Source of the DNA: Escherichia coli
Lineage (GTDB): Bacteria > Pseudomonadota > Gammaproteobacteria > Enterobacterales > Enterobacteriaceae
Direction: 5' to 3' (one strand)
Length of the DNA stretch: 64,000 bases
Assembly: GCA_902500205.1 (NCBI GenBank)
Contig: GCA_902500205.1_4868.1
The translations under genes and the position numbers were made by a program. The notes under the pieces were generated by a model, which did no database searches, was not told the DNA's origin, and saw nothing but the letters and a program-made list of their open reading frames with translations. Positions 1,191 to 43,777 of this stretch are shown here, piece after piece; position 1 is the stretch's first letter; the number at the start of each line of letters is the position of its first letter.

Positions 1191-2662
1191 TCAACTTATA
1201 TTCACTTAATGCTGTCACCAACGCAATGAAACTGGCGAAACAACACCAGGTTCGTTTAGAAGCTGACGTTGACAGTCCTGTTGGTCTACTGACAAAAGCG
1301 ACTACGCAGCAGAGCGTTTTCGATACACAGATAACTGACGAAGAGTTCTTCCAGTCTCTGCCGGATATCACTGCACTGAAAACGCCGCAATCTGGCACGG
1401 GCGAAGCGTCTGTAATCGCGGACACGGCAGCGGGTCCAGAAACGCTGAACGTCGAAGACCACGAACCGACACTGTTCGAACTGAAACGTATGGCTATCCA
1501 ACGTTGTCAGGGTATGCTTGACTTTGCCCGTAACGTTATTCAGCCGTTTGTTCAACTGGTTATCCAAAACAACCAGGGTATTGAAAACCAGGCAGTTAGC
1601 GAAGAGTGGGCACTCGTACCTGCAGGTATGGACCCGGCGCTGAACTCCCCGGTGGTACAGGCGTTAATTGATTCGGTAGAAAACCCGCTGGGTAATGGTA
1701 CTACGCATCCCGCAGTTAAAGCCAACGTCCCTGCCGATATCGAACTGCCGGAAACCGGCAGCAAAGCATACGACGATCTGGTTAAAGAACTGTTGAATGC
1801 GCTGGGTTGGAATATCAACGAAGCCGTTCGCAACATGCTCGAAGGGAACATGCTCTCTCCGGTAAGCGACCAGGCACCACACAACCTGAAACGCAACATT
1901 CTGTTTATGCTGCTTTCTGGCTACTACCTGGAAATGCCGTGGAAAGACTCTGGTCTGAATAGCGGGCAGTGGAAAGCACAGATGCTGCCATTACATTACA
2001 GCTATATCGGCTGGGTTTACGCCTACACCCAGAACATCGTTACCCGCATCAAGACCGGTAACATTGTCTTCGGATACGACAACGTTGAGAAGAAAGTGTA
2101 TATCTGTCAGGAAGTGATGGACGACTATCTGGAAAAAGGTGGTAGCGTTGAAGCGTTACTGGGCGCTATCTACCAGCTGGACGAAGGTGACACCAATGTC
2201 TCCACGCGTGTAGCTTCACTGTTGGAAAAACAGAAAGACTACATCGCTGCCTGGGGCCACCGTTCTGCGATTCAGCGTGCTAAGCTCGACAGCAGTTGGG
2301 TAACACGCAATCGCCAGTCACTGAAACAAGCGTTTAACGTGGCCATCGATGCAACCGATCCTGAACTGTTCTGGCGTGGACAGGACGGTCAGGTAGCAAC
2401 GCCGGAGTTCGTTAAGAAATCAACGGCAAGCTTCATCGATTCGTTCTTCACAACCGACACCACAGACATCACTGAGTTCGTTATCAAAGTCTCCGCGACT
2501 GAGGTCTTCGGTGAATACGAACTGTCCAAGCTGATGCTGGATATTCATCGTGGTATGATTGCTAACCGTCAACCTGACGAGGTGGCAACCGACTGGATGA
2601 TTAACTACGTCCTGGATTGGATTTGTGGCGGTGTGGTTATTTCTGTACCGAGCAAAGTTTAA
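1187..2662 (+). CDS. hypothetical protein (491 aa)
   Basis: Long ORF, translationally coupled to upstream gene. Confidence 0.65.
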   Translation: MINLYSLNAVTNAMKLAKQHQVRLEADVDSPVGLLTKATTQQSVFDTQITDEEFFQSLPDITALKTPQSGTGEASVIADTAAGPETLNVEDHEPTLFELKRMAIQRCQGMLDFARNVIQPFVQLVIQNNQGIENQAVSEEWALVPAGMDPALNSPVVQALIDSVENPLGNGTTHPAVKANVPADIELPETGSKAYDDLVKELLNALGWNINEAVRNMLEGNMLSPVSDQAPHNLKRNILFMLLSGYYLEMPWKDSGLNSGQWKAQMLPLHYSYIGWVYAYTQNIVTRIKTGNIVFGYDNVEKKVYICQEVMDDYLEKGGSVEALLGAIYQLDEGDTNVSTRVASLLEKQKDYIAAWGHRSAIQRAKLDSSWVTRNRQSLKQAFNVAIDATDPELFWRGQDGQVATPEFVKKSTASFIDSFFTTDTTDITEFVIKVSATEVFGEYELSKLMLDIHRGMIANRQPDEVATDWMINYVLDWICGGVVISVPSKV

Positions 2663-2671
2663 TAAAGAGAG

Positions 2672-3400
2672 GTGGTCGTGAGCGCCATTGAAACAGCACG
2701 TCGTGACGCGACGAAAATTCATGCAGATTTAGTGGACCAAGGCACGGCCACCATCACCAAAGGGGGATGTTACATTTACATCCCTGTTGGCTTCGTGGCT
2801 AAAGAGCTGGCGGTAATTTCTTCGCAAGTCGAAATCGTCGGTATTTTCGCTATCTCCACTGACCGCAAAACCTACGGGGTATCGAACGTCACGACGTTCA
2901 TTGAAATTACCCCGTCGGCGTTTGAGGAAATTGACGTTCAGGGTGTGCCGTATTACGAGTTCCGTTTTGACCCCGGCACGGTGGTGTTCCCCAACCGAAT
3001 GCTGCAAGTGCTCTCCTCGCCAGTCTACAACATCGCTTCGTACATCTACGACTTCGGAAACCGGCCTTTCTGGTACACCGCAGTAGATGACGCTGAGCTA
3101 TTGTCTGACACTAAGACGTGGAACGGCTTTACGGTCTTTAACGACCAGATCACCGCTGACTGTTATGCTGCCCACACACAGCGTAAGGTTGGCGACCCGC
3201 GGACGTATTTCCGCTACACCCTGAAAAAAGACAGCGATTTGATGAATCGGGTGCAGTTTATTCCGCTGCGTTCAGGTTCATTGAACAAAACTTCCCGGCT
3301 GGCCAAGATTGCAGATGTGGAACTGAAACAGGGTATCCGTTCTGCACTCCAGGTCGATCCGGTACGTGCAGAGCCACTCGAGGATTTGTATATGAGGTAA
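2672..3400 (+). CDS. hypothetical protein (GTG start at 2672 or 2678)
   Basis: ORF track; GAGG Shine-Dalgarno upstream. Confidence 0.55.
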   Translation: MVVSAIETARRDATKIHADLVDQGTATITKGGCYIYIPVGFVAKELAVISSQVEIVGIFAISTDRKTYGVSNVTTFIEITPSAFEEIDVQGVPYYEFRFDPGTVVFPNRMLQVLSSPVYNIASYIYDFGNRPFWYTAVDDAELLSDTKTWNGFTVFNDQITADCYAAHTQRKVGDPRTYFRYTLKKDSDLMNRVQFIPLRSGSLNKTSRLAKIADVELKQGIRSALQVDPVRAEPLEDLYMR

Positions 3401-3462
3401 CTGAGGTAGGGTTATTGTACGTCCCCAATAACCCGCTTCGGTAATAACAACTGGGGAAACCA

Positions 3463-4266
3463 ATGGAAAACTTGTCACTACGTTATAACTGCGTGGCACT
3501 CGCTGGGGTCAATAAAGGGGCAACGCTAAAGAAAGATGCGGACGGATATTACTACGTCCTGTTAGGTGCACTGAATATTTTCAACTCTGAGAATATTTAC
3601 TACGCCTATAACGAGTCAAAACATGTCTTCGAGCGCTCTAACGTTTTCATGCGTAAAGTTTTGGCGGGGAATCTCTTCGGTGAAGAAGACCATCCGCAAT
3701 ACGAACAAGGCATGAGCGAAGCCCAGTGGATCGAACGTAACGAATGGATCGAAACGCGTAACGTGTGTATGCACATTCGCGAAGTAGAAGTGAAGCCGAC
3801 CGACCAGATGTGTAACGGTCTGCCGGTGATGGAAATTTGGGGTTGGATTAAACCTAACCGTGAACGTGGTCCGCTTCTGGCGGAAGCACTAGAGAACCCA
3901 CATCAGAACGTGTGTTTCTCGCTGCGTGCTATCGTTCGTGAAGGTCGTCTGGGTACGACTATCGTACGCCGCATCGATAAACTGGTCACCTTTGACTGGG
4001 TTATTGAAGATGGCCTGCAAATCTGTAACAAATACTCTGCGATTCAACGCGGTAGTAAAGTAGCACAGGAATCTACTCGCACTTACGTCGACCGCCCTAT
4101 CAGTCGTCAAGTGTTGGAAGACATTCTGTACAATCCGACAACGACCAGCGCTGTTGCCACTGAGTCCCGTCGTGGTGCTCTCCAGCAACTCGCGCAGGAA
4201 TACCTGCAGCTGGCTCCGAAAGTGTCCAATCTGCGGGTAATGGGCATGGGTGTAAGGAGCTGGTAA
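3463..4266 (+). CDS. hypothetical protein (267 aa)
   Basis: ORF track, same-strand gene array. Confidence 0.6.
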   Translation: MENLSLRYNCVALAGVNKGATLKKDADGYYYVLLGALNIFNSENIYYAYNESKHVFERSNVFMRKVLAGNLFGEEDHPQYEQGMSEAQWIERNEWIETRNVCMHIREVEVKPTDQMCNGLPVMEIWGWIKPNRERGPLLAEALENPHQNVCFSLRAIVREGRLGTTIVRRIDKLVTFDWVIEDGLQICNKYSAIQRGSKVAQESTRTYVDRPISRQVLEDILYNPTTTSAVATESRRGALQQLAQEYLQLAPKVSNLRVMGMGVRSW

Positions 4267-9955: not shown

Positions 9956-12001
9956 TTAGCTCTCCCGACGGTAAACTTTGATAGTGGTGTTGAACTGGGT
10001 GAGCAGCACACCGCCTTCAGCGATCAGGTCCAGCGTCACAGAGTAACCATTGGATTTATCGTCTGCAGTGAAGTACGCCTTCGGAGTGACGACAGCAACG
10101 TTATCGAGACGGCCTTCCAGACGTTCGATAATTTTGTTCTCAATCATCTTCGCACGTTCATCATCCGTCATGGCCGCTTCGCCAGACATGTCCGCCCATA
10201 CACGGTCGGAAACACGATAGACGTAGGTCATCATGAAGTTGAACAGGGCGTTGTTCAGTACAGAACGATCTTCGCTGTAGATTGACTGAATCGCCGGAAT
10301 GAACAAGCGATAGTAGTCGTAGGAACGGGCAGTGATCAGCGACACATCCCAGTCAGACGCATACACTTCGTTGCCTTTCCACGGCATACTCAGGTCAGTC
10401 AGATCTTCGATAATCGTCAGTTCGCCACGGCTGAAACGATAAGCCGGTTTTGCACGACCGTCGCCTGCACCCAGGTACTTCGAGAAGAAGTTCGCCAGGG
10501 AGTAGTTCATCGGAACAGGCTTCTTGTAGGAAGAGTTCTTGATGAACGCCGATTGGCCGGTGACCATACCACGTGCAGCCGGAGTGCCGTAATAGGCAGA
10601 TTCCGGTACCGCTGTGATCAATTCGATCAGGGCGATTTTTGCACTTTCTTCTGTCTGCTCATCGTTACGACCTTGGTTGTAAACGTGAGTCGCCAGCGTC
10701 AAGAAGGTGTTACGTGAACGACCGATGAAGTTCACGAGCGCAGCTTTAGTATCGAAGCTAAAGCCAGAGTCCCAGAAACAACCCAGCGAGTATTTCAGCT
10801 CGTTGTCGTAACGGACTTTACCGCCATCCGGGAACAGCAGCATTTCACGGCGAACGAGTTCGTCGTAAACGTCGTTGTTCATGGTACCATCGCTACCACC
10901 TTGCAGGTAGTGGATGTTGGATGCGGAGAACACAACTTTACCGGTTTCAGTAGCCGGGTTTACCTGAAGACCATCGTAAGGCTGGCCCAGTAAATCATAG
11001 CCGCCAAAGATGTCAACCATATACGGGTCAGCAGGCGCATCAGTTGTGATAGCGGCCTGAGCCAAGCCCAGTACAGTTTCCAGGTTCTCGCGATACAGAT
11101 AGAACTGCTCGAAAGGACCATAATCTGGCAGCTCGCCAATGTCAGGCATCGTCTGACGATATGCATCCGCAACAACAACTTCGAAGTCGAGTTGCGTTCT
11201 CATCGGCTGATAGTATGCATCGGGCTTAAAGCTAAAATTGATGCTACTCATGCCAGTGAGAGTTTTCCACACTACCGGAGAAGTCACGCCTGCCAGGGTT
11301 TCGAACCATTGCAGGGTGTAAACACGACCACCGACTTCATTTTGATAGGAGGAGGTCAGAGCCGGGCTGGATTTCTCGCTGAGTGGGATCAGTTTGAAAC
11401 CGAAACCGTTGACGTCAGCACCCGCATACGGGCCTGCGATATCGAACAACGGATACAGCTTCGATTTCGTGCCGCCTTCGCCAGTCATCGTCCCCTCGAT
11501 AACCACACCTGCGCCGATGGCCGGGGTAGTTTCGTCGATTACGACAGAACGGAAGACGATTACCAAACCGTCAACTTGTTCTTTGATCTTGGGCTTGCCC
11601 GAGTTGTCGTACTGAACGATCCCGTTGCTGTCGCGTTCGTAGGACGGAACTTTCGTTTCGAGTACGTCGGCGAATACGCGAACACTTGCGGTTTTCGCAT
11701 CTTCAGGGATCAAGCGCTGATACATACACTCGTTTGCGTTAGCGTTGAACATCGCCTGATAGGGCGTGTTGAACGTCGCGTAGGGGCCTCGCAAGTCAAA
11801 GACATTGCGACCAAGCAGAGACAGTGCATTATCCCCGGTTAACGGGAACGCCTCGTTGTCTACCCCGCGCGCGGCAAAGGTGAAGATCAGCGGCTTATGA
11901 ATTGCGTCACCCGTAGGGGTACGCACAAGCTCGGGGACAGAGTTATCCTGCCAACCTTGCTTGTTATTCAACGGCGCGCCGTTTCGTGGAATAAAAGTCA
12001 T
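9956..12001 (-). CDS. abundant virion structural protein, candidate tail sheath (681 aa)
   Basis: Size typical of contractile-tail sheaths; strongly optimised codons; followed by a tube-sized gene and a strong terminator. Confidence 0.4.
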   Translation of the reverse strand: MTFIPRNGAPLNNKQGWQDNSVPELVRTPTGDAIHKPLIFTFAARGVDNEAFPLTGDNALSLLGRNVFDLRGPYATFNTPYQAMFNANANECMYQRLIPEDAKTASVRVFADVLETKVPSYERDSNGIVQYDNSGKPKIKEQVDGLVIVFRSVVIDETTPAIGAGVVIEGTMTGEGGTKSKLYPLFDIAGPYAGADVNGFGFKLIPLSEKSSPALTSSYQNEVGGRVYTLQWFETLAGVTSPVVWKTLTGMSSINFSFKPDAYYQPMRTQLDFEVVVADAYRQTMPDIGELPDYGPFEQFYLYRENLETVLGLAQAAITTDAPADPYMVDIFGGYDLLGQPYDGLQVNPATETGKVVFSASNIHYLQGGSDGTMNNDVYDELVRREMLLFPDGGKVRYDNELKYSLGCFWDSGFSFDTKAALVNFIGRSRNTFLTLATHVYNQGRNDEQTEESAKIALIELITAVPESAYYGTPAARGMVTGQSAFIKNSSYKKPVPMNYSLANFFSKYLGAGDGRAKPAYRFSRGELTIIEDLTDLSMPWKGNEVYASDWDVSLITARSYDYYRLFIPAIQSIYSEDRSVLNNALFNFMMTYVYRVSDRVWADMSGEAAMTDDERAKMIENKIIERLEGRLDNVAVVTPKAYFTADDKSNGYSVTLDLIAEGGVLLTQFNTTIKVYRRES

Positions 12002-12058
12002 GGAACGTCTCCATATATTCGTCTTAAAGACCTGATGGTCATACTAAGGATCATACTC

Positions 12059-25623: not shown

Positions 25624-25699
25624 AGGAAAGTGACGCAATTGGTAGCGTACCGGTCTCCAAAACCGGCTGTTTAGAGTTCGAGTCTCTACTTTCCTGCCA
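25624..25699 (+). tRNA. tRNA-Trp (anticodon CCA), 3' CCA encoded
   Basis: Manual cloverleaf: acceptor AGGAAAG/CTTTCCT, D-stem ACGC/GCGT with GG in loop, anticodon stem CCGGT/ACCGG with loop CTCCAAA, T-arm TAGAG-TTCGAGT-CTCTA. Confidence 0.85.
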
Positions 25700-27047: not shown

Positions 27048-27117
27048 GGCTTTGTAGCTCAGGTAGGTAGAGCAGCCTCTTCGAGGAAGGTCGCCGGTTC
27101 GAGACCGGTCAAAGCAA
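27048..27117 (+). pseudogene. tRNA-like element with truncated anticodon arm (degenerate tRNA?)
   Basis: Good acceptor (6 of 7 bp), D-arm GCTC-AGGTAGGTA-GAGC and T-arm GCCGG-TTCGAGA-CCGGT, but the anticodon arm is only CCTC-TTC-GAGG. Confidence 0.3.
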
Positions 27118-39889: not shown

Positions 39890-41743
39890 ATGGTAAAAAT
39901 CGTTGACTCTAACAACAACGCTCAGCAGAACAACACTCAGACTCAAGACACCGCACCACTGGGCGGTCTGGGCAACGAGACTGTAAAAGTGCAAACTGCT
40001 GTGCCGGGTACTTCTACTGTCAGCCAATTCGATAACGCATTTGGCATCCGCAACATCAGCACCTATGCAATGCACTTCGTCAACCTCCTGGACGAGCTGA
40101 AGAAAAGCAACGAATACCTCAACGCGTTCCGCTGGGGCACCATCGCCGGCGTGGGTAACGAAATGGGTTCCGCGGCGTATGTCGCAGGCCAGTGGCAGGG
40201 CCACTGGCTGTATGGTATCATCTTCTTTGAACGCGGTCAGTCTCTGCGTCTGAAAGAAACTACCAACAACGGCCAGGAAGACTACTACACCATCACTGAA
40301 CTGTTCAACAAAGACGTGCTGGCAGTAGTACAGAAAAACATCATGGAAGCGCATGGTCTGACCAATGCGAACTTCATGATCATCAACTCCGTACCAGACC
40401 TGGGTAAAGTTCTGGATGCTGAGTGGGCACGTACTCTGATGGGTCAGATGATGATGGGCATCTTCGGTCGTATCGCAGGCTACCTGGGTACGCTGAACCT
40501 GCGTAAGCATGACCGTTATCAGGCTGCAGTAATGCCGCTGGAAGATGGTGCGGTTGTGGATGCTAACGGCCACGCACAGCGTGCTGATTTCGCAATCACC
40601 GTTGAACACAGCCCAAGCAACGTAACCGACGCCACTCCGACTCTGCTGGACACCAATCAGGTACAGGTGTATCCGCGTGTATCCGGTACTGGTTTCGTCA
40701 ATATGCGTTTCACCGGTCAGAAGCCTGTCGTTAACGGCGTCTACGACCTGAAACAGCTGCAGGCTGAAATCGTAGTAAGTCTGATCGATTCTCAAACTGA
40801 AGGTGCAATGGCACCGTATGAACGTCAACTGCTGCTGCTGGCTGCATTTGCAGAAATCGCGGCAATCGGTGGCTGGCGTGACCTGTTTGTGAAACGTCTG
40901 AACAAACAAGATCGCAAGTTCTCCCGTGTGGCAGAATACCTGTCCTGGGGCGCTGACGCTCGTCCTGACGTATCCAAAATCGACGGTAGCCGTGAAGCTA
41001 TCGAAGGTTGCCTGGATATGTTCGCACCGCGTGAAGCAGCACTGGTAGTTAGCCATCGTGCCGGTAACGGCCTGGGTGGTCTGTCTACTTTGCTGTCTGA
41101 AATTGCGGTCGGTTACGACAACTCTCTGAAACAGCTGCTCGCTATTCTGAATTCCATGTCCCCGCGTGATCAGAACGGCGAAGTTGTTGCAGCGACCAGC
41201 TTCACTGCAGTATTTGCTTCTGCACTGAAAGCACAGCTGGGCGATGCCTTCAATGGTACCATCCATTGCAGCCACATCGTGAAAGCAGCCGTACCGACTG
41301 TTTCCGGTGTTTACACCGGTACTGCACAGAAACGTAGCTTCCAGGATATGGACCTGATTTCCGTTGTTACCAAACTGGGTGATAACGCGAACGACGTCTA
41401 TAGCTACCTGAACGCACAGTCCTACAGCCACCGTGAACTGAACGAGCGTCAACAGCGTATCTACATGCTGAAACTGGCCGCTTCTCTGTTCGCATCCAAA
41501 GCACCGCAAGCTACCGGTGAATCTCTGGATATGGCTATCAACCCGATCTTCGGTAAATGCCTGCTGGACTTCGTCCGTAACAACTGCACCTGGTCTATGA
41601 CTGGTGTAAATGCCTACAACACGATGGCGACCTCTCTGTTCTTCAACAACGGTGGGGAAGACTTCACGCTGTCTGGCAACGGCCTGTCTGCAAGCGGTTC
41701 CGATTTCGGTCTGGGCGTGACTCTGAGCAACTTCAAACTGTAA
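39890..41743 (+). CDS. abundant protein; candidate phage-nucleus shell protein (chimallin) or major capsid protein (617 aa)
   Basis: Strongest codon optimisation in the window; two tandem promoter motifs and conserved leader AAGGAATATTTAAAATG upstream; strong terminator downstream; size fits chimallins (about 600-630 aa). Confidence 0.45.
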   Translation: MVKIVDSNNNAQQNNTQTQDTAPLGGLGNETVKVQTAVPGTSTVSQFDNAFGIRNISTYAMHFVNLLDELKKSNEYLNAFRWGTIAGVGNEMGSAAYVAGQWQGHWLYGIIFFERGQSLRLKETTNNGQEDYYTITELFNKDVLAVVQKNIMEAHGLTNANFMIINSVPDLGKVLDAEWARTLMGQMMMGIFGRIAGYLGTLNLRKHDRYQAAVMPLEDGAVVDANGHAQRADFAITVEHSPSNVTDATPTLLDTNQVQVYPRVSGTGFVNMRFTGQKPVVNGVYDLKQLQAEIVVSLIDSQTEGAMAPYERQLLLLAAFAEIAAIGGWRDLFVKRLNKQDRKFSRVAEYLSWGADARPDVSKIDGSREAIEGCLDMFAPREAALVVSHRAGNGLGGLSTLLSEIAVGYDNSLKQLLAILNSMSPRDQNGEVVAATSFTAVFASALKAQLGDAFNGTIHCSHIVKAAVPTVSGVYTGTAQKRSFQDMDLISVVTKLGDNANDVYSYLNAQSYSHRELNERQQRIYMLKLAASLFASKAPQATGESLDMAINPIFGKCLLDFVRNNCTWSMTGVNAYNTMATSLFFNNGGEDFTLSGNGLSASGSDFGLGVTLSNFKL

Positions 41744-41825: not shown

Positions 41826-43777
41826 GTGAGAAAGGTACCAAAATTCTACGGAATATCCGGCCGGTTGGTTAGTCAGGATAACTATTTGTCCGATTTGCAA
41901 ATAGAAGCTGCTGCCAAAGGTATTAAACCACCCACTATTATTAACGATGTCGCCGTTAACGGGGATGCGATCGAGGTTGCTGAACTTATCGATCGCATGG
42001 TACAGAACAGAATCGTTGACGAAGAACTGAACTCTGCACCGATTTGTAGTTTGGATTGTCCGGCACCGATCGCGCATCGTTACAATCTCGGTTGTAAGTG
42101 TCCGACGTGTGGCTATGTTGTAACTGAACATCGAATTGAATCCGATGTCTGGTTACGTGCACCCGATGAAATGGGTAACTTCGTCAACCCACGATTCTGG
42201 GCAATGTTCAATGCTTTCTTTAATAGCAAGTTGAAGAAGTTTGAACGTAACAAGGTCACTATCGAACGCGGTAATGACTTGATGATGTGGATGATTGACC
42301 CGTATTACCGTATAGAAGAACCAGACGGTAAACGCGCACATGCTGTGAAACGTGTATTGGAAGAACATGGTTTCGTTCGTGGCTTGCGCAATCTGGTTGA
42401 TAACCACGTTAGTATCTTTAACATCCTTACCACGCCAGAAGCCTGGAAGGAAATCTTCGCACCTAATCGGCATAACGCCGCTGAAGGTGAACGCTTACGT
42501 TTACAATGGAAGGAGCTATTCGAAACGCAACGCCATGCATTCTTCCCAAGACACTTACCGCTAATCTCCTCTAAGCTTATCGTTACTGAGGAAGGTCGTC
42601 GTGGTGTCATGGTAGACCCAGTGTTCACGGGTGCTATCGATGCGGTGAAAAATATCGCGTTACTTTATACGCGGCGTAAAGCGATCGAACCACGTTTTCT
42701 GATTAGTCGCGCTTTGAAAGCCAACCGTCAGTTAACGTACTTCCACATGGACTTCCGTCGTGAGTCTATGGAAGGTAAACCGGGTGACTATCGTGCGAAA
42801 TTGGGTTCTACCCATATCCCATTCGGTGGTCGTGCAACCATCTCACCTATCTCAGAACCACACGATGCCTGGAAGTTAAAAGCACCATGGCGTTGGATGG
42901 TTGGGTTGATGTCGACCCACATCGAGAACAAACTGCTACGACGGGGTTATTCGTCACGGCAATGTGAACGTATCGTTGCAAAAGCGGCAATGCAGTATGA
43001 CCCGCTTGTAGATGAAATCTTTAAAGAACTGATTCGTGAATCCCCAGGCGGTCTTGGGATCATGGTCATACCGCTACGTAACCCAACGCTGGTACAGTTG
43101 TCTATTCAAACGCTGTACATCGATGAAGTTGTTACCGATGTTAACCAGTGTTCGCTGCGTATCTCTGACCGTGTGATCAAGATGGCTAACGGTTCGAAAA
43201 GAGCCCCATCGGACGGGAAACCTCTGATGCGTATTCTCCTGAAATGCTGGGAAACCCTAAAGCGTATCTACCAGAAATGGGGACGAAAGTCTGAAACAAC
43301 AGATACGATGGCCTACGCTAAACAATACTGCTAACGGTTGTGATAATGGGTAATCAGCAGCGAAGCCTCGTGAGAGGAACGTTCAACGACTATCGCTGAA
43401 ATGCGAGTAGGGGTCCCAGTGGACTTCGAAGTGGGAGAACACCTAAGGCGATAGCTATGGTGAAGATATAGTCTGTGCCTTATCGAGAGATAAGGAGGGT
43501 GTCTTAGCACACCTGCTGTATACGGAAACGGTATACGGTGGACAAACAGGATTTCGATGGCGACCAGTTCCAGGTACGTTTGCCAGTCGATGAAACTGAG
43601 ATGAAGTTGGCGCTCCAATTCCGTCCAGATAACGGCTTTATGTCTTCTACTGATGTGGACCGCGTAGAACACGGCATGGTTTTACATAACGAGCTAATCA
43701 GTATGCAGAACCAGTTCCTTATTGAAGCAGATGAGGATGATGAAGAAGGCATTCCGTTGGAAGCGGTGATGGGCTAA
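41826..43777 (+). CDS. RNA polymerase beta-prime subunit, N-terminal fragment, interrupted by a group I intron (exon 1 from 41826 to about 43166, exon 2 from about 43532 to 43777)
   Basis: Zn-finger-like CSLDC..CKCPTC; NPTLVQLSIQ matches beta-prime APTLHRLGIQ; exon 2 carries DFDGDQFQVRLP (catalytic NADFDGDQ); GTG start with GAGG upstream. Confidence 0.7.
43167..43531 (+). ncRNA. group I self-splicing intron (boundaries approximate)
   Basis: Canonical core elements: Q-like AATCAGCAGC (43351), R GTTCAACGACTA (43381..43392), S AAGATATAGTC (43463..43473, identical to the Tetrahymena S element), P9 hairpin CCTTATC..GATAAGG; 5' exon can end in T and intron in G with frame restored. Confidence 0.7.

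Follow-up and report, generated by a model that had tools for sequence, protein, structure and literature searches.

An ORF-less group I intron immediately before the catalytic DFDGD codons of a jumbo phage RNA polymerase gene

Introduction

HNH-bearing group I introns were predicted in the gp56, gp72 and gp179 genes of the jumbo phage phiKZ in 2002 (Mesyanzhinov 2002, as cited in PMC10914365, PMC11512511), and introns in its gp55 and gp180 genes are cited as known (PMC10914365, PMC11512511). In the non-virion RNA polymerase (nvRNAP), the enzyme by which the late genes are transcribed (PMC5105663), phiKZ gp55 is the beta-prime N-terminal subunit (PMC4666361), and the nvRNAP beta-prime N gene of Bacillus phage AR9 is also reported to be disrupted by an intron (Lavysh 2016, as cited in bioRxiv 10.1101/2020.12.14.422802). 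The present work concerns a 64,000-nucleotide (nt) stretch of DNA assembled as Escherichia coli (contig GCA_902500205.1_4868.1; hereafter the window), of which the region studied is 99.2% identical to Escherichia phage vB_EcoM_EC001 (EC001), of the SPN3US group of jumbo phages, genus Seoulvirus. In this region the homologue of the phiKZ gp55 gene is interrupted by a 356-nt group I intron that lacks an open reading frame (ORF) for an endonuclease. A literature search gave no mention of an intron in any Seoulvirus. The intron was not annotated before, but introns related to it have been familiar at this position in phiKZ-like phages for a long time, those of phiKZ gp55/gp56 since 2002.

Results

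The interrupted gene and the intron boundaries

Two ORFs in the window match adjoining parts of one protein profile, PHROG 2987 ('RNA polymerase beta subunit'). The first, 41826..43334 (+), encodes 502 residues and covers profile positions 1-417 (E=5e-155); the second, 43538..43777 (+), encodes 79 residues, including DFDGDQFQVRLP, and covers positions 418-477. Since the coverage adjoins at 417/418, the profile evidence identifies them as consecutive pieces of one protein family, in agreement with an original prediction, made by a model from the sequence letters, that a beta-prime-like ORF is followed here by a second block containing DFDGD.

The equivalent gene of SPN3US is a single uninterrupted reading frame of 531 codons, which reads ...KMANG-DFDGDQ... 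across the catalytic loop. Alignment of the window with this intron-less allele leaves one clean gap of exactly 356 nt, the ends of which are ambiguous by one base. Under the group I end rules (the 5' exon ends in U and the intron in G) the only placement is 43194..43549, and the intron boundaries are assigned on the basis of this allele and these rules. Exon 1 then ends with U43193 and the intron with G43549 (junctions 43193/43194 and 43549/43550), ...AAC GGT is joined to GAT TTC GAT..., again giving ...KMANG-DFDGDQ..., and the insertion separates the Gly codon of NG/DFDGDQ from the first Asp codon, immediately before the catalytic loop, as had been proposed. The spliced junction is predicted to read ...GCTAACGGT/GATTTCGATGGC in RNA and ...VIKMANGDFDGDQFQVR, MANGDFDGDQFQVR in protein.

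The conceptually spliced product has 531 residues, as in SPN3US, and differs from SPN3US_0023 in one residue (F431Y), far from the junction. Among solved structures its best match is phiKZ gp55 (PDB 7OGP chain A, 7ogp_A; E=1.4e-38, residues 52-494), an alignment that extends through NADFDGDQ; the comparison of the spliced protein with beta-prime, which had been suggested as a check, thus gives a clear match with the corrected junction. Relatives are annotated 'nvRNAP beta' subunit 1'. On this homology the interrupted gene is the phiKZ gp55 homologue and encodes the nvRNAP beta-prime N-terminal subunit. The gene and its intron are laid out as follows.

41826..43193 (+): exon 1, beta-prime N-terminal subunit gene of the non-virion RNA polymerase, 456 codons, ending ...AAC GGT (N G); PHROG 2987 positions 1-417, colinear with uninterrupted SPN3US_0023, best solved-structure match phiKZ gp55
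43194..43549 (+): group I intron, 356 nt, ORF-less, IA-type; RF00028 at 69.4 bits, 356-nt gap against SPN3US, covariation over 11 homologues
43550..43777 (+): exon 2, GAT TTC GAT GGC GAC..., encoding DFDGDQFQVRLP..., 75 codons plus stop; PHROG 2987 positions 418-477

An Rfam scan of the whole window returned one group I intron match, RF00028 at 43174..43495 (+), which scores 69.4 bits (gathering score 50, E=1.6e-15) and spans the full model (1-253), so that the proposed covariance-model search and the covariation described below bear out the group I identity. The intron also folds more stably than its shuffles (minimum free energy z-score -3.43). The P1 that Rfam draws (GAUGG with CCAUC) was rejected, CAUC being part of P2, which covaries.

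Structure of the ribozyme

The structure was derived from 11 homologous introns, i.e. those of the window, SaP7, three uncultured-phage contigs (retrieved from IMG/VR with a motif specific to the family), Raoultella VB_ZK_P1, Klebsiella phiKp_32, Vibrio phage 2 TSL-2019, Pseudomonas EL and vB_PQ1, and a second intron of Photobacterium phage PDCC-1. Their pairwise identities are 55-81%, with three near-identical pairs at 87-99.7%. RNAalifold, unaided, recovered P2, P3, P4, P5, P6, P7.2, P8, P9, P9.1 and P9.2, with compensatory changes in 40 of 70 pairs. With the P7 pseudoknot added (73 pairs), 95.9% of cells pair, compared with 34-47% in slid controls, in which pairing partners were moved by 1-3 columns, and double changes occur in 41 pairs, compared with 12-16 in those controls; none of 500 shuffles attained any of the observed pairing measures. 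P1, P5a and P7.1 covary as well. The elements are located as follows.

43191..43205 (+): P1 hairpin, GGU/UC-GAAAA-GAGCC, with the 5' splice site (slash) after U43193; this base is paired to G43203 in the internal guide sequence; guide and exon covary
43208..43228 (+): P2 hairpin with a GAAA tetraloop (43217-43220); 6 of 8 pairs compensatory
43234..43240 (+): P3 5' strand, pairing with 43433..43439; 4 of 7 pairs compensatory
43245..43382 (+): P4-P5-P6 domain, supported by covariation, with P5a fully compensatory in six lineages; it comprises P4 (43245-50/43354-59), P5 (43254-57/43348-51), P5a (43263-69/43301-07) and P6 (43360-62/43380-82 plus 43366-69/43374-77), all (+)
43388..43392 (+): P7 5' strand, GACUA, pairing with UAGUC at 43469..43473 and forming a pseudoknot with P3; U-A becomes C-G in three sequences
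43393..43427 (+): extra helices P7.1 (43393-96/43403-06) and P7.2 (43410-16/43421-27); in P7.2 6 of 6 pairs compensatory
43433..43439 (+): P3 3' strand; covariation of the P3 helix
43440..43462 (+): P8; two covarying helices
43463..43473 (+): J8/7 and P7 3' strand (AAGAUAUAGUC, the classical S element); Rfam, covariation and motif search
43478..43539 (+): P9 (43478-84/43489-95, GAGA loop 43485-43488), P9.1 (43496-43514) and P9.2 (43515-23/43531-39); covariation of three helices
43549..43549 (+): omega-G at the 3' splice site, within the conserved tail GGACAAACAG; SPN3US alignment and family alignment
43552..43557 (+): possible P10, exon-2 UUUCGA with the first six intron bases UCGAAA (43194..43199); 6 of 6 pairs, proposed from complementarity

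The Q, R and S core motifs named in the original prediction each occur once, on the + strand only (AATCAGCAGC at 43352, GTTCAACGACTA at 43381 and AAGATATAGTC at 43463), and correspond to the 3' strand of P4, the 5' strand of P7, and J8/7 with the 3' strand of P7, respectively; the hairpins with GNRA loops that it noted are P2 and P9. The loop of P9.2 has 7 nt (GGAAACG, 43524-43530) and contains GAAA. The internal guide sequence tracks the exon among relatives, the exon and guide being GGU and GCC in the window, and GCU with GGC or GAU with GUC elsewhere. P7.1 is UCGC/GCGA in the window and GAGC/GCUC in relatives. The terminal omega-G is present in all 11 family members. At the possible P10 the SaP7 exon has U in place of C where its intron has AAAA.

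The presence of P7.1 and P7.2 between P7 and the 3' strand of P3 is the mark of subgroup IA in the Michel-Westhof classes, and from this arrangement the window intron is assigned to IA, without a finer class (IA1, IA2 or IA3). A conserved motif in the P5 extension, GAAACAA-N17-GCTAAACAATACTGCTAA (GCTAAMCAATANNGCTAA), is present at 43296..43337 of the window and in the aligned region of 11 of 11 family members. It retrieves the intron family specifically from IMG/VR (7 loci) and may form a tertiary contact.

Endonuclease genes

In the window intron no ORF with any Pfam domain, and no endonuclease ORF, is present on either strand, consistent with the description of the intron as compact and lacking a homing endonuclease; an endonuclease remnant within it or on its antisense strand was considered and rejected, there being no Pfam match. 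A tblastn search of the 64-kb window for relatives of the family's HNH enzymes gave nothing below E=0.07. By contrast, the introns of SaP7, Proteus phage 7, phiKp_32 and EL carry an ORF of 288-339 residues, with HNH plus NUMOD or I-HmuI-like domains, in a P1 loop that is closed by a long stem of 9-13 bp. The intron endonucleases that were compared are mutually homologous (E=1e-14 to 1e-59); one further contig (L014) has an ORF that ends just upstream of the guide sequence and is cut off by the end of the locus. Lacking an endonuclease gene, the window intron is unable to move by itself. Of the features of a homing intron, presence/absence polymorphism with co-converted flanking exon bases was found, as described below, and an endonuclease was not.

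Three alleles in one phage species

Across ~36 Seoulvirus records the gene exists in three forms. The ORF-less intron of the window type occurs in six records (EC001, Lh1B, JN03, 1252, SPLA3 and SPLA5c), with 98.3-100% identity over the intron; an ORF-bearing intron of 1404 nt occurs in three (SaP7, Proteus phage 7 and SPFM1); and at least 21 records are intron-less. The gene is also uninterrupted in related Erwinia phages. In GenBank the six carriers of the ORF-less intron list a truncated polymerase subunit, some with a second small coding sequence (CDS).

Exon bases flanking the insertion vary with the presence of the intron. All four sampled intron-bearing alleles read GCT AAC GGT/GAT, whereas all four sampled intron-less alleles read GCA AAT GGA GAT, such that three synonymous changes, at -7, -4 and -1, track the intron in 8 of 8 sampled alleles; the change at -1 supplies the splice-site U. 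Between the window and SaP7 25 of 1596 exon positions differ, whereas the intron cores are ~25% different. The possibility that the window intron is the SaP7 intron minus its ORF was rejected, since the cores are only ~75% identical and the exons 98% identical. Because the cores diverge to this extent between nearly identical exons, the sequence comparison points to the ORF-less and SaP7-type introns being separate lineages that landed on the same site. Since only part of the species' isolates carry the intron, it was most likely acquired by homing or recombination.

The SPFM1 record (L027, LR535901.1 224215..227814) is colinear with SaP7 only as reversed 60-base blocks, each block itself running forward; the 60-base lines of the entry were apparently deposited last to first. 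A match in 26-28 pieces is also found for several further SPFM records, a pattern suggestive of a shared line-order artefact.

Related introns around the catalytic loop

The insertion site of the window intron is also occupied in SaP7, Proteus phage 7, EL, Raoultella VB_ZK_P1 and three uncultured phages, and introns at this site or within 1-2 codons of it are found in phiKZ, EL, Vibrio, Raoultella and uncultured phages. Four adjacent insertion points lie within the 15 bases that encode A/G-D-F-D-G, making this an intron hotspot: N/ADFDGD (phiKZ type, KTN4), NA/DFDGD or NG/DFDGD (window, EL and others), NAD/FDGD (Vibrio 2 TSL-2019 and Photobacterium PDCC-1; L007/L008) and DFDG/D (a second family).

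The gp55 gene of KTN4 (phiKZ species, L021) consists of three exons and two group I introns (1422..2665 and 2776..4145), which score 87.5 and 74.7 bits in Rfam and both contain an HNH-NUMOD ORF, and the first exon alone is annotated in GenBank as the polymerase subunit. In Raoultella VB_ZK_P1 (L005, 2848..3170) and Klebsiella phiKp_32 (L006, same coordinates) a window-type intron is followed by a 12-nt micro-exon, GATTTTGACGGT (DFDG), and then by a 311-nt insert of the second family (2860..3170 in L005) ending ...AATGATG/GATACC; because this 12-nt exon is flanked by inserts, the catalytic motif lies on a micro-exon between two introns. Inserts of the second family (255-311 nt) also occur at DFDG/D in Aeromonas jumbo phages, in the gene next to that for the virion RNA polymerase beta subunit (L022 2493..2750, L023 1918..2174, L024 620..874, L025 620..875 and L026 618..875). 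The second family obeys the group I end rules (the exon ends in U, the insert in G, with a GCC guide) and has a covarying fold of P3/P7-like topology, with 28 of 66 pairs compensatory. It has no Rfam match at E<=1, and a pattern scan of IMG/VR for it found nothing; it probably represents a divergent group I intron missed by RF00028.

Photobacterium PDCC-1 has a second intron of the window's family at another locus (L017, ~11613..12013), which Rfam does not report at the gathering threshold. The record of Pseudomonas vB_PQ1 (L010, PQ516283.1) contains two copies of the intron 3' end and the start of the DFDGD exon, with the polymerase gene in many small CDSs, and seems to suffer from an error of assembly or sequencing.

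Other features of the window

Directly upstream of the polymerase gene is a 617-residue ORF, 39890..41743 (+), matching PHROG 8316 ('unknown function'); it holds the position annotated 'nuclear shell protein' (chimallin) in Vibrio and Photobacterium jumbo phages, and the order chimallin gene, beta-prime N gene is kept across distant nucleus-forming phages. Exon 2 and the 3' half of the intron are overlapped by an antisense ORF of 113 residues, 43331..43672 (-), which matches nothing in Pfam and is in all likelihood spurious. The only transfer RNA (tRNA) found by ARAGORN in the window is tRNA-Trp, 25624..25699; a second Rfam tRNA match, 27048..27117 (+; 36.4 bits, cut-off 29), has a shortened anticodon loop and was not called by ARAGORN.

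Discussion

The conservation of a group I architecture in the window intron, and its exact removal in alignments with intron-less alleles, lead us to regard 43194..43549 as very probably a functional group I intron. In the proposed mechanism, the P1-P9.2 ribozyme would form within the pre-mRNA, and the first attack, by a free guanosine nucleotide, would fall after U43193, held in P1 by G43203; the freed exon end would then attack after G43549, so joining GGU to GAU. Ligation would yield the 531-residue subunit with an intact Mg-binding catalytic Asp triad. Unspliced RNA would give the 502-residue product, which stops 47 codons into the intron, with 46 intron-encoded residues at its end and without DFDGD, and for this reason active polymerase would depend on splicing. 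The proposal that polymerase production is tied to splicing is sound in this sense, since an intron that splits the gene immediately before the catalytic loop makes splicing a requirement for an intact subunit. Given that EC001 and Lh1B, which carry the window-type intron, are viable, propagated phages (PMC8812316, PMC10302289), and that late genes are transcribed by the non-virion polymerase, we infer that splicing occurs in vivo.

Several points weigh against this interpretation. P1 is short, with three exon bases paired (GGU with GCC) and five pairs in the whole hairpin. The Rfam alignment (43174..43495) starts too early, misplaces P1 and ends at P9, and the boundaries consequently rest on the intron-less allele and the group I rules. 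Self-splicing in the window phage is a prediction from the sequence, as are the catalysis and mobility history of the intron. Under the conditions of a long-read transcriptome study, no splicing of the predicted phiKZ introns was detected (PMC10914365); however, gp55/gp56.1 is a single joined chain in the phiKZ polymerase that was purified and solved (PDB 7OGP), and a 56-kDa gp55 is described in PMC4666361. Finally, transcription in these phages takes place in a nucleus that is free of ribosomes (PMC12908238), whereas T4 introns are reported, in work cited in PMC10914365, to need translation, a caveat with respect to splicing in vivo.

Other readings of the locus must be set against these considerations. 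It could be that the intron is real and no longer autocatalytic, i.e. that it needs a phage or host protein, or splices poorly and so throttles late transcription, as the short P1 and the failure to see homologous phiKZ introns spliced in one long-read data set (PMC10914365) might suggest. All core helices are, however, intact and under compensatory selection, P7 and J8/7 agree with the consensus, the intron is 98.3-100% identical among the six carrier records, of which at least EC001 and Lh1B are propagated as viable phages (PMC8812316, PMC10302289); this reading is accordingly judged improbable. Less probable still is that the gene is truly split, with 41826..43334 and 43538..43777 translated as two polypeptides that assemble into the polymerase. 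That is how GenBank presents EC001 ('beta subunit 1', 'beta subunit 2'), EC001 and Lh1B both being annotated with two CDSs; split subunits are usual in jumbo-phage polymerases (PMC7598289), and an in-frame GTG is present at 43538. Yet this GTG falls within the P9.2 hairpin and is not preceded by a Shine-Dalgarno sequence, the break would fall within the catalytic loop and would replace nothing by 47 + 4 foreign residues, phages with 98% identical exons have a single uninterrupted ORF, and the DNA between the two ORFs is a covarying ribozyme.

The boundaries first proposed for the intron, 43167..43531, have next to no chance of being correct. A junction after 43166 and 43531 is indeed in frame, but it is misplaced by 27 nt at the 5' end and 18 nt at the 3' end, and it gives ...LRIS-YTVDKQ-DFDGD rather than the ...LRIS-DRVIKMANG-DFDGD of SPN3US; the loss of DRVIKMANG and gain of YTVDKQ hold relative to every intron-less relative. 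Moreover, no P1 with a U-G pair at 43166 can be drawn, and position 43531 is inside P9.2.

With respect to why an immobile intron persists, it may be that the ORF-less form is kept as a cheap immunity allele and is not a passive leftover, although we consider this rather unlikely. The occupied NG/DFDGD site, together with the three synonymous changes, would protect the essential polymerase gene from cleavage by the HNH endonuclease that co-infecting relatives of the SaP7 type encode. If so, the SaP7-type endonuclease should cut GCAAATGGAGATTTCGATGG but not GCTAACGGTGATTTCGATGG, the ORF-less intron would mirror, in defence, the 'weaponised' PhiPA3 intron while sparing the phage the cost of an endonuclease gene, and the four adjacent insertion points and two unrelated intron families within 15 bases would be the trace of an arms race over one site.

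The window intron is a clean, well-supported example that will not surprise the specialist. Homing-intron biology leads one to expect an intron at the active site of a conserved gene; the position is a textbook landing place of homing introns, and is not evidence of special regulatory design or of a new regulatory principle. Its value lies partly in annotation, as the six carriers should have one joined CDS, with an intron at the position matching 43194..43549 of the window, and partly in the natural experiment that it offers: within one species, whose hosts E. coli and Salmonella are easy to handle, three alleles of an essential gene (empty, ORF-less and endonuclease-bearing) lie on ~98% identical exons. 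Such a system could address whether co-infections are won or lost through intron endonucleases, as has been demonstrated for PhiPA3 against phiKZ, and how group I splicing proceeds inside a ribosome-free phage nucleus, given the reported need of T4 introns for translation.

Among known systems, the SaP7/Proteus phage 7/SPFM1 intron shares the species, the site and the three synonymous exon changes, on exons ~98% identical, but is 1404 nt long, encodes a 288-residue HNH-NUMOD1 protein and has a core ~75-79% identical to that of the window. The Pseudomonas phage EL intron, between gp24 and gp26 and carrying gp25, occupies the exact site (NA/DFDGD) in the same gene and belongs to the same family, including the P5-extension motif; it is ~61% identical over the aligned core and has, in its P1 loop, a 326-residue HNH-NUMOD1 ORF annotated 'putative replication protein'. 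The phiKZ gp55/gp56/gp56.1 locus is the same gene with group I introns, the second of them in the same catalytic loop, and its mature protein is joined (7OGP). By contrast with the window, the gene in phiKZ-type phages holds two introns that both contain an ORF for an HNH endonuclease, the loop intron is inserted one codon upstream (KAPN/ADFDGDQ), and sequence similarity is limited to the core. The rarity implied in the original prediction was therefore overstated, the gene being interrupted at or next to the same codon in phiKZ, EL and many other jumbo phages; for AR9 the likeness is at the level of the subunit gene, which is reported to be intron-disrupted.

The td, nrdB and sunY introns of T4 are phage group I introns of subgroup IA2, with ORFs in P6 or P9 loops. 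Like the window intron they have P7.1/P7.2, lie in essential genes of nucleic-acid metabolism, are polymorphic among close relatives and exist in ORF-less and ORF-bearing forms; they differ from its family in that the ORFs are in P6/P9 and not P1, in their host genes, and in the lack of a phage nucleus in T4. The PhiPA3 gp210 intron (Birkholz et al. 2024, PMC11620839), which has been the subject of detailed study, is likewise of group I and lies at the conserved catalytic-region aspartates of a jumbo-phage RNA polymerase gene, where it carries an I-HmuI-like HNH endonuclease. gp210 is, however, the gene for the virion RNA polymerase beta subunit, i.e. a different subunit and a different polymerase from those of the window, and its endonuclease has been shown to nick a competitor's gene.

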